Assembly (NCBI RefSeq): GCF_044647545.1
Contig: NZ_CP172818.1
Strand: one strand, 5' to 3'
Length of the DNA stretch: 64,000 nucleotides
Origin: Escherichia coli
GTDB lineage: Bacteria; Pseudomonadota; Gammaproteobacteria; Enterobacterales; Enterobacteriaceae
A model generated the notes under the pieces. The model was not told the DNA's origin. It saw only the letters and a list, made by a program, of their open reading frames with translations, and did not search any database. Both the position numbers and the translations under genes were made by a program. Of this stretch, positions 2,530 through 63,950 are shown in pieces; position 1 is the first letter of the stretch; each line of letters starts with the position of its first letter.

Positions 2530-3552
2530 ATGTTTCAGCAGCAAAAAGACTGGGAAACAAGAGAAAACGCGTTTGCTGCTTTTACCATGGGACTGCTGAC
2601 TGATTTCTGGCGTCAGCGTGATGAAGCAGAATTTACTGGTGTGGATGACATTCCGGTGCGCTTTGTCCGTTTTCGCGCACAGCACCATGACCGGGTGGTA
2701 GTCATCTGCCCGGGGCGTATTGAGAGCTACGTAAAATATGCGGAACTGGCCTACGATCTGTTCCATTTGGGGTTTGATGTCTTAATCATCGACCATCGCG
2801 GGCAGGGACGTTCCGGTCGCCTGTTAGCCGATCCGCATCTCGGGCATGTTAATCGCTTTAATGATTATGTTGATGATCTGGCGGCATTCTGGCAACAGGA
2901 GGTTCAGCCCGGTCCGTGGCGTAAACGTTATATACTGGCACATTCGATGGGCGGTGCGATCTCCACATTATTTCTGCAACGCCATCCAGGTGTATGTGAC
3001 GCCATTGCGCTAACTGCGCCAATGTTTGGGATCGTGATTCGTATGCCGTCATTTATGGCACGGCAGATCCTCAACTGGGCCGAAGCGCATCCACGTTTCC
3101 GTGATGGCTATGCAATAGGCACCGGGCGCTGGCGCGCGTTGCCGTTTGCTATCAACGTACTGACCCACAGCAGACAGCGATATCGACGTAACTTACGCTT
3201 CTATGCTGATGATCCAACGATTCGCGTCGGTGGGCCGACCTACCATTGGGTACGCGAAAGTATTCTGGCTGGCGAACAGGTGTTAGCCGGTGCGGGTGAT
3301 GACGCCACGCCAACGCTTCTCTTACAAGCTGAAGAGGAACGCGTGGTGGATAACCGCATGCATGACCGTTTTTGTGAACTCCGCACCGCTGCGGGCCATC
3401 CTGTCGAAGGAGGACGGCCGTTGGTAATTAAAGGTGCGTACCATGAGATCCTTTTTGAAAAGGACGCAATGCGCTCAGTCGCGCTCCACGCCATCGTTGA
3501 TTTTTTCAACAGGCATAACTCACCCAGCGGAAACCGCTCTACAGAGGTTTAA
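2530..3552 (+). CDS. pldB: lysophospholipase L2, 340 aa
   Basis: 340-aa ORF with alpha/beta hydrolase GHSMGG motif; conserved context. Confidence 0.92.
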   Translation: MFQQQKDWETRENAFAAFTMGLLTDFWRQRDEAEFTGVDDIPVRFVRFRAQHHDRVVVICPGRIESYVKYAELAYDLFHLGFDVLIIDHRGQGRSGRLLADPHLGHVNRFNDYVDDLAAFWQQEVQPGPWRKRYILAHSMGGAISTLFLQRHPGVCDAIALTAPMFGIVIRMPSFMARQILNWAEAHPRFRDGYAIGTGRWRALPFAINVLTHSRQRYRRNLRFYADDPTIRVGGPTYHWVRESILAGEQVLAGAGDDATPTLLLQAEEERVVDNRMHDRFCELRTAAGHPVEGGRPLVIKGAYHEILFEKDAMRSVALHAIVDFFNRHNSPSGNRSTEV

Positions 3553-3559
3553 ATTTCTT

Positions 3560-4360
3560 ATGTATCAGGTTGTTGCGTCTGATTTAGATGGCACGTTACT
3601 TTCTCCCGACCATACGTTATCCCCTTACGCCAAAGAAACTCTGAAGCTGCTCACCGCGCGCGGCATCAACTTTGTGTTTGCGACCGGTCGTCACCACGTT
3701 GATGTGGGGCAAATTCGCGATAATCTGGAGATTAAGTCTTACATGATTACCTCCAATGGCGCGCGCGTTCACGATCTGGATGGCAATCTGATTTTTGCTC
3801 ATAACCTGGATCGCGACATTGCCAGCGATCTGTTTGGCGTAGTCAACGACAATCCGGACATCATTACTAATGTTTATCGCGACGACGAATGGTTTATGAA
3901 TCGCCATCGCCCGGAAGAGATGCGCTTTTTTAAAGAAGCGGTGTTCAAATATGCGCTGTATGAGCCGGGATTACTGGAGCCGGAAGGCGTCAGCAAAGTG
4001 TTCTTCACCTGCGATTCCCATGAAAAACTTCTGCCACTGGAGCAAGCGATTAACGCTCGCTGGGGCGATCGCGTCAATGTCAGTTTCTCTACCTTAACCT
4101 GCCTGGAAGTCATGGCGGGCGGCGTGTCAAAAGGCCATGCGCTGGAAGCAGTGGCGAAGAAACTGGGCTACAGCCTGAAGGATTGTATTGCGTTTGGTGA
4201 CGGGATGAACGATGCCGAAATGCTGTCGATGGCGGGGAAAGGCTGCATTATGGGCAGTGCGCACCAGCGTCTGAAAGATCTGCATCCGGAACTGGAAGTG
4301 ATTGGTACTAACGCCGAGGACGCAGTGCCGCATTATCTGCGTAAGCTCTATTTATCGTAA
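3560..4360 (+). CDS. yigL: HAD-family sugar/pyridoxal phosphate phosphatase, 266 aa
   Basis: ATG at 3560 in frame with longer track ORF; HAD motifs (DLDGTLL, GDGMND). Confidence 0.9.
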   Translation: MYQVVASDLDGTLLSPDHTLSPYAKETLKLLTARGINFVFATGRHHVDVGQIRDNLEIKSYMITSNGARVHDLDGNLIFAHNLDRDIASDLFGVVNDNPDIITNVYRDDEWFMNRHRPEEMRFFKEAVFKYALYEPGLLEPEGVSKVFFTCDSHEKLLPLEQAINARWGDRVNVSFSTLTCLEVMAGGVSKGHALEAVAKKLGYSLKDCIAFGDGMNDAEMLSMAGKGCIMGSAHQRLKDLHPELEVIGTNAEDAVPHYLRKLYLS

Positions 4361-4435
4361 TCGTTCTTTATTTGGTCAGTTGTCAACCTGATACTTCGCT
4401 ACAATGGATACTCGTTAATCAAAGAGTTTTCCATT

Positions 4436-5335
4436 GTGGCGCTACTTATCATCACCACGATTCTGTGGGCCTTCTCCTTTAGCTTTTATGGCGAGTACCT
4501 TGCGGGGCACGTCGATAGCTATTTTGCGGTTCTGGTGCGCGTTGGCCTGGCGGCACTCGTTTTTCTGCCGTTTCTGCGTACCCGTGGCAATAGCCTGAAA
4601 ACGGTCGGCCTGTATATGCTGGTGGGCGCGATGCAGCTCGGTGTGATGTATATGCTGAGTTTCCGCGCCTATCTCTACCTGACGGTCTCCGAACTGTTGC
4701 TGTTCACCGTACTGACGCCGCTCTACATCACGCTGATTTATGACATCATGAGTAAGCGCCGTCTGCGCTGGGGCTATGCTTTTAGCGCCTTGCTGGCGGT
4801 GATTGGTGCCGGGATTATTCGCTATGATCAGGTCACCGACCATTTCTGGACTGGCTTATTGCTGGTGCAACTCTCCAATATCACTTTTGCCATCGGCATG
4901 GTGGGTTACAAACGTCTGATGGAAACTCGCCCGATGCCGCAGCATAACGCCTTTGCGTGGTTCTATCTTGGCGCGTTCCTGGTGGCAGTGATTGCATGGT
5001 TCTTGCTGGGAAATGCACAGAAAATGCCGCAAACCACGTTGCAATGGGGCATTCTGGTGTTTCTTGGCGTGGTGGCTTCCGGGATTGGCTACTTTATGTG
5101 GAACTACGGCGCGACGCAGGTGGACGCCGGAACGCTGGGCATTATGAATAATATGCACGTTCCGGCAGGGCTGCTGGTAAACCTGGCTATCTGGCACCAA
5201 CAGCCGCACTGGCCAACGTTTATTACAGGCGCGCTGGTGATCCTGGCCTCACTGTGGGTGCATCGTAAGTGGGTCGCTCCGCGCTCTTCACAAACGGCAG
5301 ATGATCGCAGGCGTGATTGCGCGCTGAACGAATAA
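4436..5335 (+). CDS. yigM: EamA/DMT-family membrane transporter (biotin transporter BioP/YigM), 299 aa
   Basis: 299-aa polytopic membrane ORF with GTG start; conserved position between yigL and metR. Confidence 0.85.
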
Positions 5336-6176
5336 ATGCTTCTGTAATCGGCTGACGCTGCTCTCCATCGCGCACGGCGGCGTACAGTCGGCTCCACAAG
5401 CCTTCGCCCAGGGTTTTGGTCACCACCAGACCCTGGCGCTCAAAACTCTCAACTACCCAATGCGGCAGCGCGGCAATACCCATCCGCGCGGCAACCATCT
5501 GAATCAACAATAAGGTGTTATCGACGCTTTTCAGTGACGGGCTGACGCCTGCCGGCTGAAGAAAATGCCGCCAGACATCCAGTCGACTACGCTGCACCGG
5601 ATAAATCAACAGCGTCTCGCTGGCGAGATCTTCCGGTGTAATTCGCGTTTTCGCCGCCAGTGGATGGTCAGGTGCTAACACCAGACGCACTTCATAGTCG
5701 AACATCGGCGAATAATGCAGGCCACTGCGCGGCAGAATATCGGACGTCATCACCAGATCCAGCTCGCCCTGTTGCAACGCAGGCTGCGGATCAAACGTTA
5801 CGCCCGATTTAAAATCCATCTCCACCTGCGGCCAGTTCTTATGGAAATTTTCTAATGCGGGCGTCAGCCACTGAATACAGCTATGGCACTCAATGGCAAT
5901 GCGCAGGCGCGTCTGCTGCGGTTCATTGCAGGCTTGCAGTGCCTGGCTAATTTGCGGCAGCACCTGATTTGCCAGTTGCAACAGGATTTCTCCCTGCGGT
6001 GTAAAGCGAAGCGGCTGGCTTTTACGCACAAATAGCCGGAAGCCAAGGCGTTGTTCCAGATCGCTAAACTGGTGAGACAGGGCGGATTGCGTTTGATGCA
6101 ACGTCGCCGCAGCGGCTGCGAGTGAGCCGCAGTTCCGCAACGCTTGTAGCGTTTTCAGGTGTTTTACTTCGATCAT
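5223..6176 (-). CDS. metR: LysR-family transcriptional activator of metE/metH, 317 aa
   Basis: 317-aa ORF with N-terminal LysR HTH, divergent from metE. Confidence 0.93.
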
Positions 6177-6293
6177 GAAAGTCCTTCACTTCGGCATGAA
6201 TAATTTGCGCTTGAGGAATATACAGTAACCGCCAATTATGGATGTGTAAACATCTGGACGGCTAAATACTAAAAATTCCATAAGGGGCATATA

Positions 6294-8555
6294 ATGACAA
6301 TTCTTAATCACACCCTCGGTTTCCCTCGCGTTGGCCTGCGTCGCGAGCTGAAAAAAGCGCAAGAGAGTTATTGGGCGGGGAACTCCACGCGTGAAGAACT
6401 GCTGGCGGTAGGGCGTGAACTGCGTGCTCGTCACTGGGATCAACAAAAGCAAGCAGGTATCGACCTGCTGCCGGTGGGTGATTTTGCCTGGTACGATCAT
6501 GTCCTGACCACCAGCCTGCTGCTGGGTAACGTTCCGGCGCGTCACCAGAACAAAGATGGTTCGGTAGATATCGACACCCTGTTCCGTATTGGTCGTGGAC
6601 GTGCGCCGACTGGCGAACCTGCGGCGGCGGCGGAAATGACCAAATGGTTTAACACCAACTATCACTACATGGTGCCGGAGTTCGTTAAAGGCCAACAGTT
6701 CAAACTGACCTGGACGCAGCTGCTGGAGGAAGTGGACGAGGCGCTGGCGCTGGGCCACAAGGTGAAACCTGTGCTGCTGGGGCCGGTTACCTGGCTGTGG
6801 CTGGGTAAAGTGAAAGGTGAACAGTTTGATCGCCTGAGCCTGCTGAACGACATTCTGCCGGTTTATCAGCAAGTGCTGGCAGAACTGGCAAAACGCGGCA
6901 TCGAGTGGGTACAGATCGACGAACCCGCGCTGGTACTGGAACTACCGCAGGCGTGGCTGGACGCCTATAAACCCGCTTACGACGCGCTCCAGGGGCAGGT
7001 GAAACTGCTGCTGACTACTTATTTTGAAGGCGTAACACCAAATCTCGACACGATTACTGCGCTGCCTGTTCAGGGGCTGCATGTGGACCTTGTACATGGT
7101 AAAGATGACGTTGCTGAACTGCACAAGCGCCTGCCTTCTGACTGGCTACTGTCTGTGGGTCTGATCAATGGTCGTAACGTCTGGCGCGCCGATCTTACCG
7201 AGAAATATGCGCAAATTAAGGACATTGTCGGCAAACGTGATTTGTGGGTGGCATCTTCCTGCTCACTGCTGCACAGCCCCATCGACCTGAGCGTGGAAAC
7301 GCGTCTTGATGCAGAAGTGAAAAGCTGGTTTGCCTTCGCCCTACAAAAATGCCATGAACTGGCACTGCTGCGCGATGCGCTGAACAGTGGTGATACGGCG
7401 GCTCTGGCAGAGTGGAGCGCTCCGATTCAGGCGCGTCGTCACTCTACTCGTGTACATAATCCGGCAGTAGAAAAGCGTCTGGCGGCGATCACCGCTCAGG
7501 ACAGTCAGCGTGCGAATGTCTATGAAGTGCGTGCTGAAGCCCAGCGTGCGCGTTTTAAACTGCCCGCGTGGCCGACCACCACGATTGGTTCCTTCCCGCA
7601 AACTACGGAGATTCGTACCCTGCGTCTGGATTTTAAAAAGGGTAATCTCGACGCCAATAACTACCGCACGGGCATTGCGGAACATATCAAGCAGGCCATT
7701 GTTGAGCAGGAACGTTTGGGACTGGATGTGCTGGTACATGGCGAGGCCGAGCGTAATGACATGGTGGAATACTTTGGCGAGCATCTGGATGGCTTTGTCT
7801 TTACGCAAAACGGTTGGGTACAGAGCTACGGTTCCCGCTGCGTGAAGCCACCGATTGTTATTGGTGACGTTAGCCGCCCGGCACCGATTACTGTGGAGTG
7901 GGCAAAATATGCGCAATCCCTGACTGATAAACCGGTGAAAGGGATGTTGACCGGCCCGGTGACTATTCTCTGCTGGTCGTTCCCGCGTGAAGATGTCAGC
8001 CGTGAAACCATCGCCAAACAAATTGCGCTGGCGCTGCGTGATGAAGTGGCCGATCTGGAAGCCGCTGGAATTGGCATCATCCAGATTGACGAACCGGCTC
8101 TGCGCGAAGGTTTACCGCTGCGTCGCAGCGACTGGGATGTGTATCTCCAGTGGGGCGTAGAGGCCTTCCGTATCAACGCCGCCGTGGCGAAAGATGACAC
8201 ACAAATCCACACTCACATGTGTTATTGCGAGTTCAACGACATCATGGATTCCATTGCGGCGCTGGACGCAGACGTCATCACCATCGAAACCTCGCGTTCC
8301 GACATGGAGTTGCTGGAGTCGTTTGAAGAGTTTGATTATCCAAATGAAATCGGTCCTGGCGTCTATGACATTCACTCGCCAAACGTACCGAGCGTGGAAT
8401 GGATTGAAGCCTTGCTGAAGAAAGCGGCAAAACGCATTCCGGCAGAGCGTCTGTGGGTCAACCCGGACTGTGGCCTGAAAACGCGCGGCTGGCCAGAAAC
8501 CCGCGCGGCACTGGCGAACATGGTGCAGGCGGCGCAGAATTTGCGTCGGGGGTAA
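6294..8555 (+). CDS. metE: cobalamin-independent methionine synthase, 753 aa
   Basis: 753-aa ORF beginning [14 protein letters not shown]; canonical MetE. Confidence 0.96.
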
Positions 8556-8595
8556 ATCCCAAACTGGGTGGCAAACACCACCCGGTCTTTTCTCA

Positions 8596-9411
8596 TTACA
8601 GCGACTTCTTCCCACCATACTGTGTAAACCATTCCAACATTCGCTGCCAGCCGTCTTTCGCAGACTCGGCATGATAGCTCGGACGATAATCGGCGTTGAA
8701 CGCATGCCCGGCATCCGGGTAGACGATAATCTCTGCTTTCGCGTTTGCTGCCCGCAGCGCCTGGCGCATCGTTTCAACGCTCTCCTGCGGAATGCTGTTA
8801 TCCTGGCCGCCATATAAGCCGATAACCGGCGCGTTAAGATCGGTTGCGATATCAACAGGCTGTTTCGGTGAATTCAGCGTCTTATCGCCGGTTAATTTGC
8901 CGTACCATGCCACCGCTGCTTTCAGTTGTGGATTATGCGCAGCATACAGCCAGGTGATGCGCCCACCCCAGCAAAATCCGGTGATCATTAAGCGATGAAC
9001 ATCGCCGCCGTTGCGTGACGCCCAACTGGCGACATGATCGAGATCGGCCAGCACCTGCGAGTCAGGCACTTTTGCTACCAGACCGCTAAGCAGCGTAGGG
9101 ATATCGGCAAAATCATTCGGATCGCCTTCGCGGAAGTAAAGTTCAGGTGCGATAGCCAGATACCCCTCCAGCGCCAGACGGCGACAAATATCGCGGATAT
9201 GTTCATGCACGCCAAAAATTTCCTGCACTACAATGACCACTGGCAGTGGGCCATCGCTTTGCTTTGGTCTGGCATGGTAAGCAGGCATGTTATCCCCTTG
9301 TGAAGGGATAGAGGTGAAGCCCGCCACAATCGCGTCGTCCGGAGTCTGAACGATGGTCGAAGCGAGAGGCGATGCAGCAGGTGCAAATCCAGATTGTTGT
9401 GTTGTTGCCAT
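8596..9411 (-). CDS. ysgA: dienelactone hydrolase family protein, about 271 aa (start chosen at internal Met; track ORF extends to 9477)
   Basis: Alpha/beta hydrolase-like ORF convergent with metE; start position uncertain. Confidence 0.8.
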
Positions 9412-9531
9412 GGTATTCTCCGTACCCTTATAAAAATGTTGCGCAATGTTAACTATAGTCAGCATGCAACAAATCACATTGCCTGAATCGGCTCATCTTT
9501 TATGCAGTCCTGCAGAATGAAGAGTGATTTA

Positions 9532-9599
9532 TGTGATTTGCATCACTTTTGGCGGGTAAATTTATGCAACGCATTTTCGTCATGGTGATGAGTATCACG
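9532..9599 (+). promoter_or_regulatory. udp promoter region with two CRP-type sites (tgtgatttgcatcact; ggtgatgagtatcacg)
   Basis: Two TGTGA-N6-TCACA-like motifs 75-140 bp upstream of udp; udp is a known CRP/CytR target. Confidence 0.6.
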
Positions 9600-9672
9600 A
9601 AAAAATGTTAAACCCTTCGGTAAAGTGTCTTTTTGCTTCTTCTGACTAAACCGATTCACAGAGGAGTTGTAT

Positions 9673-10515
9673 ATGTCCAAGTCTGATGTTTTTCATCTCG
9701 GCCTCACTAAAAACGATTTACAAGGGGCTACGCTTGCCATCGTCCCTGGCGACCCGGATCGTGTGGAAAAGATCGCCGCGCTGATGGATAAGCCGGTTAA
9801 GCTGGCATCTCATCGCGAATTCACCACCTGGCGTGCAGAGCTGGATGGTAAACCTGTTATCGTCTGCTCTACCGGTATCGGCGGCCCGTCTACCTCTATT
9901 GCTGTTGAAGAGCTGGCACAGCTGGGCATTCGCACCTTCCTGCGTATCGGTACAACGGGCGCTATTCAGCCGCATATTAATGTGGGTGATGTCCTGGTTA
10001 CCACGGCGTCTGTTCGTCTGGACGGCGCGAGCCTGCACTTCGCACCGCTGGAATTCCCGGCTGTCGCTGATTTCGAATGTACGACTGCGCTGGTTGAAGC
10101 GGCGAAGTCAATTGGTGCCACCACTCACGTTGGTGTGACGGCTTCTTCTGATACCTTCTACCCGGGTCAGGAACGTTACGATACTTACTCTGGTCGCGTA
10201 GTTCGTCACTTTAAAGGTTCTATGGAAGAGTGGCAGGCGATGGGCGTAATGAACTATGAAATGGAATCTGCAACCCTGCTGACCATGTGTGCAAGTCAGG
10301 GCCTGCGTGCCGGTATGGTAGCGGGGGTTATCGTTAACCGCACCCAGCAAGAGATCCCGAATGCTGAGACGATGAAACAAACCGAAAGCCATGCGGTGAA
10401 AATCGTGGTGGAAGCGGCGCGTCGTCTGCTGAAATTCTCTTTCTCCTGTCAGCCCTGGGTGAAGGCATCCCATCTTCATCTCCAGGATGCATTCACCGAA
10501 ATCGAATCGGGATAA
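9673..10515 (+). CDS. udp: uridine phosphorylase with a 27-codon C-terminal read-through; the expected stop position 10432-10434 reads AAA
   Basis: Translation matches Udp through ..VEAARRLL, then continues [27 protein letters not shown] to TAA at 10513-10515. Confidence 0.88.
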
Positions 10516-11690
10516 AACATCAAATAACTCCCCTCATAAATCTGGAAATCTAATTTTTTTTCAACTACTGCCCATTTCGCATTTGCCGGTAACCTATCAC
10601 ATGCATACCCTGATGGATCGCGTTTTCAGGCCGGTTCCATCGACACACCTGAATTTTTTCTCTTCGCCACGCATCACTTCGGCATTTCACCTTCTTTAAT
10701 CACCCAGCATGATTCAGCATTTCTCTCTGTGATAACACGTCAACTGCTTCGCCAGACCCTCGAATGACCGCAAGGTAAATAACTGCTGTTGCCACCCTTC
10801 GCACTCCGACATCCGCAAGCCATACCGCATGGGTTTTCGACCATCCCGCAGACACGTAAAACGTATCTGGAAACTCCTCACGTTTCTCCTGGAGGTAATT
10901 TCATGATCCCCAGAATTCACGTTTTTCTTTGATCTTGATTCGCCAAAACGCCATGCCCGAACGATGACTTCCCCATCCAGGATTAAATCTAAGTTCTGCA
11001 TTATCTTTCCTTTAATCATTTTATTTATCTTTCGGACGTCTTACCCCACCCATTCACGGATATCTCTTCTGCACAGGATTTGACGAAGTGCCACTTCAAC
11101 CCCACGACATATACTGTACTCGACAGAAATACCGCCACAATTTCATCCCGCTTGTAAACCCTCAACGCAACGGATATCGGCTCTTTCCTTCCAATCAAAA
11201 CAAAACCACTCCAAACGACGCATGTTCTAATAAAGCGCCCATTTTGTTTCATCACCACAGGCTTTACCGCCACTTTCTTCTTTCGTTAGATCAATCCTCC
11301 GATCCGTGATTCCATCATCGATCCTCTGACGCATTTCCACCCCCTGACTTTGATCTTCTCCAGATACAGCACTTCTCGCCTTCAACGATCCCCAGATGCA
11401 CGGTTCCAGTTAACCAACGTTCAAAACCGCAATTTTACACGAGTCTTTCCATCTCTCACTGAATCGATCATTTCACCCATTTACCCTCGTGACACGCAGT
11501 AACTTTTCCACAAACTGACTAAACATGTTTCTCCTCGTCCTGAACTCCCGATAATTTTAGTCACACGTTATAAACACATTAAGAACCGCCATCCACGTAA
11601 TAACGTTTCCGCCTCGTGTTGAAGAGGTTTCTCCCACTCACTTCTCTATGATATTCTGAATTTCCACATAATGACGTGGGGAAAAAGTGA
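10516..11690 (+). other. ORF-poor, G-depleted tract (top strand roughly 12-13% G, about 30% C) between udp and rmuC; origin and function unknown
   Basis: Hand counts on two 100-120 nt samples; only short ORFs (70-101 aa) on either strand, none resembling a known protein. Confidence 0.6.
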
Positions 11691-11696
11691 TATATC

Positions 11697-11725
11697 CCAC
11701 AATATAAACCCATCTCATATTGTGG
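11697..11725. promoter_or_regulatory. inverted repeat ccacaatat-N11-atattgtgg about 120 bp upstream of rmuC; candidate operator
   Basis: Perfect 9-bp arms read directly from the sequence. Confidence 0.35.
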
Positions 11726-11842
11726 ATAAATAATGAAAATTAACATTTTTGCGTAGCGCCTCGCAGGAAACTTCTTTCAAACTGGACGTTTGTACAGCAC
11801 AATTCTATTTTGTGCGGGTAAGTTGTTGCGTCAGGAGGCGTT

Positions 11843-13270
11843 GTGGATTTCTCAATCATGGTTTACGCAGTTATTGCATTGGTGGGTGTGGCAATTGGCT
11901 GGCTGTTTGCCAGTTATCAACATGCGCAGCAAAAAGCCGAGCAATTAGCTGAACGTGAAGAGATGGTCGCGGAGTTAAGCGCGGCAAAACAACAAATTAC
12001 TCAAAGCGAGCACTGGCGCGCTGAGTGCGAGTTACTCAATAACGAAGTGCGCAGCCTGCAAAGTATTAACACCTCTCTGGAGGCCGATCTGCGTGAAGTA
12101 ACCACGCGGATGGAAGCTGCACAGCAACATGCTGACGATAAAATTCGCCAGATGATTAACAGCGAGCAGCGCCTCAGTGAGCAGTTTGAAAACCTCGCCA
12201 ACCGTATTTTTGAGCACAGCAATCGCCGGGTTGATGAGCAAAACCGTCAGAGCCTGAACAGCCTGTTGTCGCCGCTACGTGAACAACTGGACGGTTTCCG
12301 CCGTCAGGTCCAGGACAGCTTTGGTAAAGAAGCCCAAGAACGTCATACCCTGACTCACGAAATCCGCAACCTCCAGCAACTCAACGCCCAGATGGCCCAG
12401 GAAGCGATCAACCTGACGCGTGCGCTGAAAGGCGACAATAAAACCCAGGGCAACTGGGGCGAGGTAGTATTGACGCGGGTGCTGGAGGCTTCCGGTCTGC
12501 GTGAAGGGTATGAATATGAAACCCAGGTCAGCATCGAAAATGACGCCCGCTCGCGGATGCAGCCGGATGTCATCGTGCGGTTGCCGCAGGGAAAAGATGT
12601 GGTGATCGACGCCAAAATGACGCTGGTCGCCTATGAACGCTATTTCAACGCTGAAGATGACTACACACGTGAAAGCGCGCTACAGGAGCATATCGCGTCG
12701 GTGCGTAACCACATCCGCTTGCTTGGACGCAAAGATTATCAACAGTTGCCGGGGCTGCGAACCCTGGATTACGTGCTGATGTTTATCCCCGTTGAGCCAG
12801 CATTTTTATTGGCACTGGATCGCCAGCCGGAGCTGATCACCGAAGCGTTGAAAAACAATATCATGCTGGTTAGCCCGACTACGCTGCTGGTGGCGCTGCG
12901 CACTATCGCCAACCTGTGGCGTTATGAGCATCAAAGCCGCAACGCCCAGCAAATCGCCGATCGTGCCAGCAAGCTGTACGACAAGATGCGTTTGTTCATC
13001 GATGACATGTCCGCGATTGGTCAAAGTCTCGACAAAGCGCAGGATAACTATCGCCAGGCAATGAAAAAACTCTCTTCAGGTCGCGGAAATGTGCTGGCGC
13101 AGGCAGAAGCGTTTCGCGGTTTAGGGGTAGAAATTAAACGCGAGATTAATCCGGATTTGGCTGAACAGGCGGTGAGCCAGGATGAAGAGTATCGACTTCG
13201 GTCGGTTCCGGAGCAACCGAATGATGAAGCTTATCAACGCGATGATGAATATAATCAGCAGTCGCGCTAG
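11843..13270 (+). CDS. rmuC: DNA recombination protein RmuC, 475 aa
   Basis: 475-aa ORF with GTG start after RBS aggagg; N-terminal TM segment, coiled-coil, C-terminal RmuC nuclease-like domain. Confidence 0.92.
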   Translation: MDFSIMVYAVIALVGVAIGWLFASYQHAQQKAEQLAEREEMVAELSAAKQQITQSEHWRAECELLNNEVRSLQSINTSLEADLREVTTRMEAAQQHADDKIRQMINSEQRLSEQFENLANRIFEHSNRRVDEQNRQSLNSLLSPLREQLDGFRRQVQDSFGKEAQERHTLTHEIRNLQQLNAQMAQEAINLTRALKGDNKTQGNWGEVVLTRVLEASGLREGYEYETQVSIENDARSRMQPDVIVRLPQGKDVVIDAKMTLVAYERYFNAEDDYTRESALQEHIASVRNHIRLLGRKDYQQLPGLRTLDYVLMFIPVEPAFLLALDRQPELITEALKNNIMLVSPTTLLVALRTIANLWRYEHQSRNAQQIADRASKLYDKMRLFIDDMSAIGQSLDKAQDNYRQAMKKLSSGRGNVLAQAEAFRGLGVEIKREINPDLAEQAVSQDEEYRLRSVPEQPNDEAYQRDDEYNQQSR

Positions 13271-21768: not shown

Positions 21769-21817
21769 AAGAACGGCAACTAAAACTTTATACAGTGGCA
21801 TTTAGATCGTCGCATCC

Positions 21818-34939: not shown

Positions 34940-34968
34940 CCACCTTTTTGCGTTGGTGCGGAATAAAT

Positions 34969-50558: not shown

Positions 50559-50583
50559 GAAGTTTCCCGAACAACTTCAACTA

Positions 50584-54206: not shown

Positions 54207-54239
54207 AAAAAACCTGCCATCGCTGGCAGGTTTTTTTTT
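54207..54239 (+). terminator. intrinsic terminator downstream of typA
   Basis: aaaaaacctgccatcgctggcaggttttttttt. Confidence 0.85.
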
Positions 54240-54405
54240 GCCTGTCGTGAGCGCACACCAATGCGAGTATCTCCCTTATAAGTCTGTGGTTACGTCAATA
54301 GAGAGCTTTGTCACAATTATCTGCAAAGTCATACGCCGTTAATTGCTTTCTTTTTTGGCGTAAGCGTAAGATGCTTCATCTGGTTTAAACCAAAAGGATT
54401 AAACA

Positions 54406-55115
54406 ATGGCGGAGAATCAATCCACCGTAGAAAATGCAAAAGAGAAACTGGATCGGTGGTTGAAAGATGGCATCACCACGCCGGGTGGAAAACTCCCTTC
54501 AGAAAGAGAGCTGGGAGAACTGCTGGGCATTAAACGTATGACGCTGCGCCAGGCGTTGTTGAACCTCGAGGCAGAATCCAAAATCTTCCGTAAGGATTGT
54601 AGGGGTGGTTCGTGACCCAGCCGCGATTTAATTACAGTCCGGAGCTGTCAGCGAGCTTTCAGCGGGCCGCAATTGAGCAAGGACGAGAGCCTTCCTGGGG
54701 GTTTACCGAGAAAAACCGTACCAGCGATATTCCCGAGACGCTCGCGCCACTGATCGCAGTGACACCATCAACTGAACTCTATCGCATCACCGGCTGGGGG
54801 GCGCTGGAAGGACATAAAGTTTTCTATCACGAAACATATATTAATCCTGAAGTTGCTCCGGGCTTTATTGAACAACTTGAAAACCACTCATTTTCTGCAG
54901 TCTGGGAAAAGTGCTACCAAAAAGAGACGGTAGTAAAAAAATTGATTTTCAAACCCGTCAGAATGCCGGGCGATATCAGCAAGTATCTTGGCGGTTCTGC
55001 GGGTATGCCAGCGATCTTAATTGAAAAGCATCGCGCCGACCAGCAAGGCAATATTGTCCAAATAGATATTGAATATTGGCGATTTGAGGCCGTAGACCTC
55101 ATCATTAATCTGTAG
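54406..55115 (+). pseudogene. yihL: GntR-family transcriptional regulator YihL, interrupted by a frameshift near 54590-54615 (ORFs 54406..54615, 69 aa, and 54612..55115, 167 aa)
   Basis: Two adjacent ORFs in different frames overlapping at gtga; together 236 aa, matching the remembered YihL length (N-terminal HTH plus C-terminal UTRA-like domain). Confidence 0.7.
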
Positions 55116-55122
55116 GTGTTTT

Positions 55123-56103
55123 ATGGTGACAATAAATAACGCAAGAAAGATTCTACAACGTGTCGACACTCTTCCTCTTTATTTACATGCTTATGCCTTT
55201 CATTTAAATATGCGGCTGGAAAGAGTGTTGCCTGCTGATTTACTTGATATCGCAAGTGAAAATAATCTACGTGGCGTCAAAATCCATGTTCTCGATGGCG
55301 AGCGTTTTTCTCTTGGTAATATGGACGATAAAGAACTCTCTGCCTTTGGGGATAAAGCCCGCCGTCTGAACCTTGATATTCATATTGAAACCAGCGCCTC
55401 AGATAAGGCATCTATTGACGAAGCCGTCGCCATCGCGTTGAAAACTGGGGCATCGTCCGTACGTTTTTATCCACGTTATGAAGGTAATTTGCGCGACGTA
55501 TTATCGATTATCGCTAACGACATTGCCTATGTACGGGAAACGTATCAGGACAGCGGCCTGACTTTTACGATCGAGCAGCATGAAGATTTAAAAAGTCATG
55601 AGCTGGTGTCGCTGGTCAAAGAAAGTGAGATGGAATCTCTTTCCTTACTGTTTGATTTTGCGAACATGATCAATGCAAATGAGCATCCCATCGACGCTTT
55701 AAAAACGATGGCACCGCATATTACCCAGGTCCATATCAAAGATGCCTTGATCGTTAAAGAACCGGGTGGCCTGGGTCATAAAGCCTGTATTTCAGGTCAG
55801 GGTGATATGCCGTTCAAAGCGTTATTAACGCACCTTATCTGCCTGGGTGATGATGAGCCGCAGGTGACGGCATATGGCCTGGAAGAAGAGGTTGATTACT
55901 ATGCGCCGGCGTTCCGCTTTGAAGACGAAGATGATAATCCGTGGATCCCTTATCGCCAGATGAGTGAAACACCATTGCCAGAAAATCATTTACTGGATGC
56001 GCGGTTACGTAAAGAAAAAGAAGATGCAATTAATCAGATAAATCATGTGCGTAACGTACTACAACAAATCAAACAAGAGGCAAACCATCTTCTGAACCAC
56101 TAA
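55123..56103 (+). CDS. yihM: xylose-isomerase-like TIM-barrel (sugar phosphate isomerase/epimerase family) protein YihM, 326 aa
   Basis: 326-aa ORF in conserved position. Confidence 0.85.
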   Translation: MVTINNARKILQRVDTLPLYLHAYAFHLNMRLERVLPADLLDIASENNLRGVKIHVLDGERFSLGNMDDKELSAFGDKARRLNLDIHIETSASDKASIDEAVAIALKTGASSVRFYPRYEGNLRDVLSIIANDIAYVRETYQDSGLTFTIEQHEDLKSHELVSLVKESEMESLSLLFDFANMINANEHPIDALKTMAPHITQVHIKDALIVKEPGGLGHKACISGQGDMPFKALLTHLICLGDDEPQVTAYGLEEEVDYYAPAFRFEDEDDNPWIPYRQMSETPLPENHLLDARLRKEKEDAINQINHVRNVLQQIKQEANHLLNH

Positions 56104-56204
56104 TAAGTTTTAACTCATACGCAGTTAATAAAACCATTCCATATGAATGGTCGGTATCTTATTGCCTTTAAAACAGTGATTTTAAAAATCGCTTAGGGGA
56201 TGTT

Positions 56205-57470
56205 ATGCTCACGAAAAAGAAATGGGCGTTATTTAGTCTATTAACACTGTGTGGCGGTACAATTTATAAATTACCGTCGCTGAAAGATGCGTTTTATATC
56301 CCGATGCAGGAATATTTCCATTTGACCAATGGTCAAATTGGTAATGCTATGTCGGTAAACTCATTTGTCACCACAGTGGGCTTTTTTCTGTCTATTTATT
56401 TTGCCGATAAACTACCGCGCAGATACACCATGTCATTCTCACTCATTGCGACAGGATTACTGGGTGTTTATTTGACGACAATGCCGGGGTATTGGGGCAT
56501 CCTCTTTGTCTGGGCGCTATTTGGCGTTACTTGCGACATGATGAACTGGCCGGTCTTGCTCAAGTCGGTAAGTCGATTGGGCAATAGCGAACAACAAGGT
56601 CGGTTGTTTGGCTTCTTCGAAACAGGGCGTGGCATTGTCGATACCGTGGTGGCATTTTCTGCGTTGGCAGTATTTACCTGGTTTGGCAGTGGCTTATTAG
56701 GTTTTAAAGCAGGCATCTGGTTCTATTCCCTTATTGTGATTGCCGTAGGCATTATTATTTTCTTTGTCCTGAATGACAAAGAAGAGGCACCGTCCGTTGA
56801 GGTGAAAAAAGAAGACGGAGCATCGAAAAACACCAGTATGACCTCGGTGCTGAAAGACAAAACTATCTGGCTTATCGCTTTTAACGTCTTCTTCGTTTAC
56901 GCGGTTTACTGTGGCCTGACATTCTTCATTCCATTCCTGAAAAACATCTATCTATTGCCCGTTGCGCTGGTGGGGGCTTACGGCATCATTAACCAATACT
57001 GTCTGAAAATGATTGGTGGACCGATTGGTGGCATGATTTCAGATAAGATCCTGAAATCGCCAAGTAAATATCTATGCTACACCTTTATCATTAGTACCGC
57101 TGCGCTCGTACTGTTGATTATGCTGCCGCACGAAAGTATGCCGGTCTATTTAGGGATGGCATGTACGCTGGGCTTTGGCGCGATAGTCTTTACACAGCGA
57201 GCCGTATTTTTTGCACCTATCGGCGAAGCAAAAATTGCTGAAAATAAAACAGGTGCGGCGATGGCGTTGGGTAGCTTTATTGGTTACGCTCCGGCGATGT
57301 TCTGCTTCAGTCTGTATGGCTACATTCTGGATTTAAATCCGGGGATTATTGGCTACAAAATCGTGTTTGGCATTATGGCCTGCTTCGCATTCAGTGGTGC
57401 GGTGGTTTCCGTAATGCTGGTTAAGCGTATTAGCCAACGTAAGAAAGAGATGCTGGCGGCTGAAGCTTAA
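56205..57470 (+). CDS. yihN: MFS-family transporter YihN, 421 aa
   Basis: 421-aa polytopic membrane ORF. Confidence 0.88.
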   Translation: MLTKKKWALFSLLTLCGGTIYKLPSLKDAFYIPMQEYFHLTNGQIGNAMSVNSFVTTVGFFLSIYFADKLPRRYTMSFSLIATGLLGVYLTTMPGYWGILFVWALFGVTCDMMNWPVLLKSVSRLGNSEQQGRLFGFFETGRGIVDTVVAFSALAVFTWFGSGLLGFKAGIWFYSLIVIAVGIIIFFVLNDKEEAPSVEVKKEDGASKNTSMTSVLKDKTIWLIAFNVFFVYAVYCGLTFFIPFLKNIYLLPVALVGAYGIINQYCLKMIGGPIGGMISDKILKSPSKYLCYTFIISTAALVLLIMLPHESMPVYLGMACTLGFGAIVFTQRAVFFAPIGEAKIAENKTGAAMALGSFIGYAPAMFCFSLYGYILDLNPGIIGYKIVFGIMACFAFSGAVVSVMLVKRISQRKKEMLAAEA

Positions 57471-57476
57471 TTAATG

Positions 57477-57560
<84 letters not shown>

Positions 57561-58253
57561 TCAGAAGAAATACTTCGTCCCGATACGAATCTGGTTTTGC
57601 TCGCGGTGGTACGGTTCGACATTACGATCTAACCAGCGCAATTCAATATAGGGCAACCAGTGCTCATTAATGCGATAACGGAAGGTGTTAGTGATTTCCC
57701 AGTGATGCTTCGTACCATTGCTGCTATTGAAATCATTAATGTTATAAAAATAATGCGGTTCAAAGGTATATGAGAACTTATCGGTAATAATAAAGTTCCA
57801 GTAGTTGCCAATCTCGTAGCTGTCATTATTATCCAGATCACCGTTCAAATCGGTTGAGCTGTAGTTATTATGGTTAAAACGATTACGTACCGTCAGGTTA
57901 AACCATGGAGTAAATTTGTAGTTAACATCCAGATAAACAGCACCACCCGAACCGATACTCTTATCATTAATTAAGCCACCGGGCTGGATGGTTAATTTAT
58001 CGGTTGGTTTGAATAACGGATACCAACCTTCGATTTCGTTATATCCATGTTTGAGTTCATCTTCTCGCTGAAAGGTGTAGGTATTGGTTAACATAATACC
58101 CGCGCCCATATCGAAGTTATAACCCACACGTAGCATAACCTCGCCCTGATCGGAGGCGAGATTATATGCCTCCCTGTTTTCGACGTATGCGCCAGCAAAT
58201 ACCGAGGCAGAGGTCAGAGAGGATAATAGAATTATTGCATTAATCTTTTTCAT
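57561..58253 (-). CDS. ompL: outer membrane porin OmpL, 230 aa
   Basis: MKKINAIILLSSLTSASVFA signal peptide, beta-barrel-like sequence ending ..GTKYFF. Confidence 0.9.
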   Translation of the reverse strand: MKKINAIILLSSLTSASVFAGAYVENREAYNLASDQGEVMLRVGYNFDMGAGIMLTNTYTFQREDELKHGYNEIEGWYPLFKPTDKLTIQPGGLINDKSIGSGGAVYLDVNYKFTPWFNLTVRNRFNHNNYSSTDLNGDLDNNDSYEIGNYWNFIITDKFSYTFEPHYFYNINDFNSSNGTKHHWEITNTFRYRINEHWLPYIELRWLDRNVEPYHREQNQIRIGTKYFF

Positions 58254-63236: not shown

Positions 63237-63589
63237 AAATAATCTCCATAGAGTATAAAGCTAATATTTCATGCCATCCTGTTGTTACAGGTTTCATTAA
63301 TTAAAGATTGTGTGCTATAAATAAAACCCCATAAGTGATATATAAAAACTTTTTCAGCCCGGCGGATTGCCGCCATTTTTAACCAAAAATGCCAGTTACA
63401 ATAATAACTAACAATAAACGGAGCAGAATCCAGCCGGGAATTCCCATCCCTTTTATCAACATAGAACCGGAGGCAATCAGCAACAAAAAGACCATCACAC
63501 GGAACACTTTGACTGAAAGCGTTTATGCACATATCTCCAACAAGCGAACCGAGAATCAGGAAAACAAAAAACACCAGTTAAAAAAAGAA

Positions 63590-63950
63590 ACATCAAAATC
63601 CCCCCCCCCCGCCCCCCCCGCCCCCCTTTTTGGGGAAAAAAAGGGTCCGAGGCCCCGAATCCCCCGGGCCCAATTCCAGCATACCTACACCCCCGCCCCG
63701 CCCCCCGCCCCGCTCGCCGCTACTCGCCGATACGCCGCGACCATAACGTCAAAACGACAGACAAGAAATAAACATAAAAAAAAAAAAAAAGAAAAGGATC
63801 CCCCTACCCATTAAAAACGTACATACAAACACACAAACAAACAACAAAAAAAAAAATAACGCCCCCCCAACACAAAAAAAAAAACCCCAACAAAAAGAAA
63901 AAAAAAAAAAAAAAAAAAAAAAACACCCCCCAAAAAAAAAAAAAACATAA
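63590..63950. repeat. low-complexity, homopolymer-rich (poly-C, poly-A) sequence; probable assembly or read-end artefact
   Basis: Runs such as c11, a25, ccccgcccc repeats and acaaacaaaca, atypical of E. coli. Confidence 0.8.

Follow-up and report, generated by a model that had tools for sequence, protein, structure and literature searches.

The gene for uridine phosphorylase, udp, is found in Escherichia coli in two natural settings, which are distinguished by what lies between it and the neighboring gene rmuC. In the K-12-type locus the coding sequence finishes CTGCTG-TAA to give a protein of 253 amino acids (CTGCTGTAA); the stop codon is followed by TTCTCTTCTCCTGTCTGAAGGCCGACGCGTTCGGCC... 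and a terminator, the 3' end of the gene as a whole reading CTGCTG TAA TTCTCTTCTCCTGTC TGAAGG, and rmuC lies ~140 nt beyond udp. In the island-type locus the coding sequence finishes CTGCTG-AAA-TAA, the protein has 254 amino acids and ends in ..RRLLK (CTGCTGAAATAA), and udp is separated from rmuC by an island of 5.7 kb. All the genes of this island are on the minus strand; they encode a TctA/TctB/Bug tripartite tricarboxylate transporter (TctABC type), a KDPGal aldolase, a 2-dehydro-3-deoxygalactonokinase and an IclR regulator. Of 5,426 complete E. coli genomes, 1,455 carry the udp-rmuC island. The two normal lengths of E. coli Udp, 253 and 254 amino acids, track the absence and the presence of the island, respectively (L002 9660-9664; L003 2191-2193).

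A udp gene that has naturally lost its stop codon is carried by strain Z1323CEC0014 (chicken, South Korea), whose island-less locus (NZ_CP148426.1, 485208-485987; L009 / L011) has AAA in place of TAA. The resulting Udp of 259 amino acids (WP_283656407.1) bears the tail KFSSPV, and the allele occurs in one of 5,425 genomes. Apparent changes of this sort can also have a quite different source, since errors that come from reference bias or from a consensus of mixed haplotypes are known from assemblies that were reference-guided or contaminated.

Here, we examine a udp gene that ends in neither of the two normal ways. It lies in a stretch of E. coli DNA of 64 kb, referred to in its entirety as the window, the features of which are collected in table 1. 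An initial annotation of this DNA had proposed that the open reading frame matches Udp up to ..RRLL and then runs on, and both proposals are borne out. Residues 1-253 are identical to the Udp of K-12 (NP_418275.1, 253 amino acids) and residues 1-254 to the island-type protein (WP_000045178.1, 254 amino acids). The profile match is full-length and above the curated cut-off, as membership of the uridine phosphorylase family demands: the equivalog NF008383 (cut-off 262 bits) is matched with 529.5 bits, residues 1-253 falling on profile positions 1-253/254, and the equivalog TIGR01718 (cut-off 280 bits) with 439 bits. What is lacking is the native termination, after either Leu253 or Lys254. There is no stop after ..VEAARRLL; codon 10432-10434 is AAA, and translation continues past ..RRLL for 27 residues to the TAA at 10513-10515, for a predicted product of 280 amino acids. 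This tail falls outside the Udp profile. The window protein is thus a uridine phosphorylase of the ordinary kind, with neither of the natural stops of the two E. coli alleles and with an extension of 26-27 residues, depending on which allele is compared, that has no homologue or other counterpart.

Table 1. Positions of the features discussed in the text, in the coordinates of the window.
Feature	Position	Strand	Basis or remarks
metE-ysgA junction	8552-8612	.	K-12-like; the 8.5-kb island of the relatives is absent
ysgA	8596-9477	-	5' neighbor of udp in the window
udp open reading frame	9673-10515	+	ATG start at 9673; alternative TTG start at 9667
udp proper, Udp residues 1-254 including Lys254	9673-10434	+	Island-type Udp, K-12 Udp, NF008383
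Read-through, AAA and 26 more codons, then TAA	10432-10515	+	Open reading frame and its translation
Chimeric junction AAATTCTCTTTCTCCTGTC	10432-10450	+	AAAT is island-type; TCTCTT(T)CTCCTGTC is K-12-type spacer
2-dehydro-3-deoxygalactonokinase gene, 5' fragment, with single-G deletions on the + strand	10451-11001	-	Alignments to L001 and L004
IclR-family regulator gene of the island, with G deletions	11021-11638	-	Alignment to the island of the relatives
IclR-rmuC spacer, right end of the damage	11639-11747	.	Last difference at 11747; 100% identity from 11748
rmuC	11843-13270	+	Intact flank, identical to ST648-like relatives
5S rRNA lesion	34940-34943	.	43 nt missing that are present in K-12 and in the relatives; adjoins a 212-nt K-12-specific insertion
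K-12-identical block: 3' part of yihL, yihM, yihN	54765-57587	+	2,823 nt with zero differences from K-12 MG1655
Second damaged tract, TauE/SafE sulfite-exporter gene	63300-63936	-	Gene of the relatives between yihQ and yihR; absent from K-12

The nearest relatives of the window are ST648-like E. coli of the island type, such as FDAARGOS_497. Positions 2926-8551 (5.6 kb) are 100% identical to this genome, and positions 8604-10435 are 99.84% identical to it, the 3 mismatches all being at 8608-8612; the 42 kb that follow the damaged region beyond udp show only a few SNPs and zero single-base insertions or deletions relative to the relatives. Because these nearest relatives are island-type, AAA is the usual codon for Lys254 in the lineage of the window. 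Judged from this comparison, what has been lost is the TAA that should follow Lys254, and AAA is not a mutated stop. The assumption that residue 253 is the native C-terminus holds for K-12-type strains and fails for the island-bearing genomes, where the protein ends one residue later; a point change of TAA to AAA, one of two origins initially offered for the read-through, is not needed. The other origin, removal of the stop by the left boundary of a tract poor in G, was essentially right: the island-type match continues through CTGCTGAAAT and is then replaced by other sequence. The start of the tract does coincide with the junction, the GC skew falling from ~+0.1 to between -0.3 and -0.55 over 10450-11600.

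At the nucleotide level the junction has three components. The window is exactly island-type udp through CTGCTGAAAT, that is, to 10435, with the leading T of the native TAA retained. After it come 15 nt, TCTCTTTCTCCTGTC, that correspond to the K-12-type spacer plus an additional T; with the exception of this T and a T>A change the window aligns with K-12 up to 10450. From 10451 onward it runs collinearly with a segment inside the kinase gene of the island (L004 20042 onward). The window therefore reads CTGCTG-AAA-T, then TCTCTT(T)CTCCTGTC, then the interior of the kinase gene; the 4 kb of the island that are proximal to udp are absent. The stretch of the window that contains the stop loss is AAATTCTCTTTCTCCTGTCAGCCC. 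The K-12 spacer has no genuine homology to the island, only chance matches of 7-8 nt and a shared right end, TTTTGCGTAGCG, so that the K-12 udp-rmuC spacer cannot be taken for a relic of the kinase gene, nor the window for a stage in its evolution. For the same reason, no deletion within an island-type chromosome could yield this join. The junction is a chimera in three parts of two E. coli haplotypes, and neither parental stop survives in it.

The stop-loss allele of Z1323CEC0014 is the closest real phenomenon to the read-through of the window, and the resemblance is considerable over a short distance. In both, AAA is found in place of TAA and the K-12-type spacer TTCTCTTCTCCTGTC comes next, the first 10 nt after CTGCTG are the same and the tail begins KFS; indeed, AAATTCTCTTCTCCTGTC is natural in Z1323CEC0014 and the window differs from it by one T. 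In Z1323CEC0014, however, there is no island, and the tail is of only 6 residues and ends at the next in-frame TGA, whereas in the window the extra T shifts the frame, which then runs into island-derived sequence. Close kinship of the window strain with Z1323CEC0014 is excluded, the lineage of the latter being only 97-98% identical to the window.

Searches for a second occurrence of the extension or of the junction in independent genomes, contigs or proteins, which would be expected of a stop-loss allele, all came back empty. In 5,425 complete E. coli genomes the tract had no match above 78%, and the junction stretch was matched in 5,425 E. coli genomes only over the end of udp and the K-12-type spacer. 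The one remaining genome of the 5,426 matched none of the queries, not even one of 20 kb with an rRNA operon; it is presumably the source of the window, which would then be a deposited RefSeq "complete genome" whose sequence its submitters had accepted. A 47-mer from the tract was absent from the GTDB species representatives and the junction pattern from the JGI metagenomes; no record of the exact 280-residue product was found, and a search of 5.8 billion protein clusters gave no match to the tail peptide. An identical extension on reference Udp proteins had been named as the observation that would refute the initial proposal; that there are none among those searched fits an artefact and a unique mutation equally well.

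The sequence beyond the junction is a damaged copy of a known one. Positions 10451-11747 are collinear with L004 20042-21595, in the same position and orientation beside rmuC, so that a tract of ~1.3 kb stands for the terminal 1.55 kb of the udp-rmuC island, a shortfall of ~270 nt; the 4 kb with which the island begins are gone and both of the remaining genes are unreadable, the longest surviving open reading frame being of at most 101 amino acids. Identity to the island is 78-84% in the tract and 100% in the adjoining rmuC. The character of the damage is peculiar. Between 10425 and 11780, comparison with the relatives' island gives 273 deleted bases (226 of them G), 9 insertions and ~17 substitutions; the excess of G among the deletions has a binomial P of 6e-84 and a Fisher odds ratio (G versus non-G) of 27. 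About 53% of the G of the plus strand has been lost, one base at a time, while ~97% of A, C and T is kept along the whole tract, and in the middle of the tract the retention of G falls as low as 7 of 29 per 100 nt. Whether a G is kept depends on its neighbors: retention is 18/19 in CGA and 19/23 in TGA, against 4/23 in AGC, 3/22 in TGT and 0/16 in AGT.

Several familiar processes can be set against this signature. A pseudogene remnant should keep its syntenic position and orientation, and this the tract does; it should also have a neutral mutation spectrum and flanks of similar age, and it has neither, so that natural decay is excluded by the deletion spectrum and by flanks that are 99.9-100% identical to the relatives. 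Hypermutation of the deaminase type (G>A / C>T) or of the DGR type (A>N) is excluded as well: these are deletions, length is not preserved, and the substitutions include only 2 G>A and a total of 10 at G against 226 deletions of G. A uniform random deletion of G in silico is unlikely, given that retention is so strongly dependent on the neighboring bases. To our knowledge, no mutational process drops half the G of one strand singly and spares A, C and T. By its pattern, the tract looks like the product of a systematic effect of signal, base-calling or consensus. A generally poor assembly is not the explanation, more than 50 kb of the window being without a single-base insertion or deletion relative to the relatives.

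The damage at udp is not isolated. In the part of the genome covered by the window, FDAARGOS_497 and K-12 differ by seven insertions or deletions, and the window is abnormal at all seven (8552-8612, 10432-11747, 21809, 34940, 50560-50570, 54237-57550 and 63300-63936) and free of insertions and deletions elsewhere. Its lesions are thus confined to structural differences between the two parental haplotypes, which is what a chimeric consensus predicts. The smaller ones are losses, each next to a K-12-specific insertion. At 21809, beside a REP-type K-12 insertion/deletion difference, 3 nt are missing that both K-12 and the relatives have; at 50560-50570, again beside a REP-type difference, 39 nt of the relatives' sequence are missing, of which K-12 shares only a part; and the loss of 43 nt in an rrn operon takes with it the terminator and ~11 nt at the 3' end of the 5S rRNA gene. 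The island that the relatives carry between metE and ysgA is of the carbamate kinase/fdrA/ylbE type. The terminator hairpin at the metE-ysgA junction has ~5 changes that none of the other complete E. coli genomes shares; over 600 nt, the closest of them reaches 97.3%.

In the yihL-yihN region the window has a block identical to K-12 in a place where the relatives have the genes STM4011-4015, a radical-SAM cluster; the core around the block shows 2-3% divergence from K-12. The identity with the relatives breaks off at 54236 and is restored at 57551, which are precisely the edges of the non-homology; SNPs of the relatives' type continue to 54223, and differences from K-12 begin again at 57588. 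The block of the second haplotype is therefore bounded by the edges of non-homology and not by crossovers in the flanks. Upstream of it, at 54601, yihL is frameshifted by deletion of a single A with an adjacent C>T. The best match to this region among the top-ranked genomes is at most 99.4%; the yihL change appears to be unique to the window and is probably another consensus error. The K-12-identical block is common to many strains of phylogroup A and, taken alone, could conceivably be a natural import. Natural recombination with, or import of, K-12-type segments is nonetheless excluded for the window, because crossovers would fall anywhere in the homologous flanks and here every switch, at several independent sites, lies ~0-37 nt from an edge of non-homology.

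The second damaged tract, 53 kb from the first, resembles it in part. From left to right it consists of a K-12-like patch of 16 nt, a stretch with deletions of G, and ~330 nt of A/C-rich homopolymer junk, and in places its runs are "smoothed", TTTTTGGGGAAAAAAAGGG standing in place of TTGTTTGCGGTGAAGAAAGCG. The patch, GATATATAAAAACTTT, matches the yihQ-yihR spacer of K-12 and is in no genome that bears the exporter gene; K-12 bases adjoin other boundaries of damage also. There is a weak signal (z = 2.5) that the A/C junk is the reference sequence minus its G and T. At 63937 the tract returns abruptly, and in register, to 100% identity.

Taken together, these patterns make it very probable that the stop loss in udp is an artefact of a chimeric consensus, drawn from an ST648-like and a K-12-type haplotype; that the cause lies in consensus or assembly, by whatever precise route, is almost certain from the sequence pattern. 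The ST648-like strain would have supplied essentially all of the core sequence of the consensus, and sequence of the K-12 MG1655 type would have entered either as the reference for mapping or scaffolding or as a second strain in the sample, with the consensus becoming garbled wherever the two haplotypes differ by an insertion or deletion. At the end of udp, AAA(T) would have been taken from the ST648-like haplotype and TCTCTT(T)CTCCTGTC from the K-12 type, and the consensus would then have jumped into the interior of the kinase gene at the shared CTGTC...TGAAGGC similarity. Both stops would be lost in this manner, and the frame would run antisense to the kinase gene until it met a TAA by chance; the following 1.3 kb would represent the final 1.55 kb of the island in poor quality, with about half of the G dropped. 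Most likely, the real strain has a normal Udp of 254 amino acids, its TAA and a full island. The likeness to reference-bias errors extends to a core from one strain, the persistence of blocks of reference, the loss or garbling of the strain's own insertions and false variants at the edges of insertions and deletions. The difference is that the dropout in the window is strongly specific to G and dependent on the neighboring bases.

Another sort of artefact would be one in which gaps in a generally accurate assembly were closed with single, untrimmed reads of low quality (capillary tails or a noisy long read) that suffered dropout of a base channel, first of G and later of T too, the stop being lost where the read was butted onto a good contig. 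A dropout specific to base and context does fit a problem of signal or base-calling, an identity of ~78-84% is within the range of a single raw read, and the second tract worsens from left to right, passing from smoothed runs to A/C junk before perfect sequence returns. But the quality of tract 1 is poor at its very first base and rises toward the right, unlike that of one decaying read, and such reads leave unexplained why the damage falls at the sites of K-12 insertion/deletion differences, why there is a 2.8-kb block identical to K-12, the K-12-type patches at the left edge of both tracts and the small lesions at 21809, 34940 and 50565; we regard this origin as unlikely. The chance is smaller again that the tract is physically present in the cell, as the decayed remnant left by a real deletion of 4 kb that fused udp to the interior of the kinase gene and produced a Udp of 280 amino acids with a nonsense tail. 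Its syntenic position and orientation are those of an island remnant, the 5-nt microhomology CTGTC at the join could mediate a deletion, and short additions to the C-terminus are tolerated by Udp, as its annotated forms of 254 and 259 amino acids show; yet no known process would take half the G of one strand singly and leave A, C and T ~97% intact, natural decay would not be expected between flanks 99.9-100% identical to relatives, and a real deletion accounts neither for the K-12-type spacer at the join nor for the same damage, ending in junk, 53 kb away, nor for the lack of anything similar in 5,425 genomes.

The allele of Z1323CEC0014 makes the loss of the stop at this codon biologically possible, and with AAATTCTCTTCTCCTGTC occurring naturally in that strain, one T apart from the window, the window strain might be imagined as an island-less one with the natural TAA>AAA allele (259 amino acids, KFSSPV) in which only the 1.3-kb tract is an artefactual insertion. 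This we consider very improbable: the allele is in one of 5,425 genomes and in a lineage 97-98% identical to the window, the udp of the window and both its flanks match island-bearing ST648-like genomes (in which AAA is Lys254 and is followed by TAA; island type CTGCTGAAATAAAAAACG), and the tract itself shows that DNA of the island was in the sample. Hardly any credence attaches to the proposal that the tract is physically present and was made by some process of DNA copying or repair that passes over G on one strand, where the template has C, according to the neighboring bases, a process that would degrade accessory genes in place and fuse udp to a nonsense tail; the A/C junk, the patches of K-12 type and the block identical to K-12 argue otherwise. 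A real tail of 27 residues on the hexameric Udp, the consequence originally envisaged, is accordingly unsupported by a chimeric junction that opens onto single-G deletions and is one of seven damaged sites.

The missing stop of udp is thus real in the sequence, but almost certainly it is not a real biological feature. Were it true, a uridine phosphorylase with a nonsense tail of 27 residues, in a hexameric enzyme, would be a modest curiosity. The greater consequence is for the use of the assembly, in which at least seven sites within 64 kb are chimeric or garbled and which should be read with caution at accessory loci. The errors comprise a false loss of the udp stop, a truncated 5S rRNA gene, a false frameshift in yihL and two unreadable gene tracts, and a K-12 block stands where the strain probably has other genes; analyses of gene content, pseudogenes or the pan-genome that make use of this assembly would be misled at such loci. 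The G-poor tract and the stretch of low complexity at 63.6-63.9 kb would have the same trivial origin as the udp read-through. As a by-product, the comparison links the forms of Udp of 253 and 254 amino acids in E. coli to the absence and presence of an island beside the gene, and adds to them one natural stop-loss allele of 259 amino acids.
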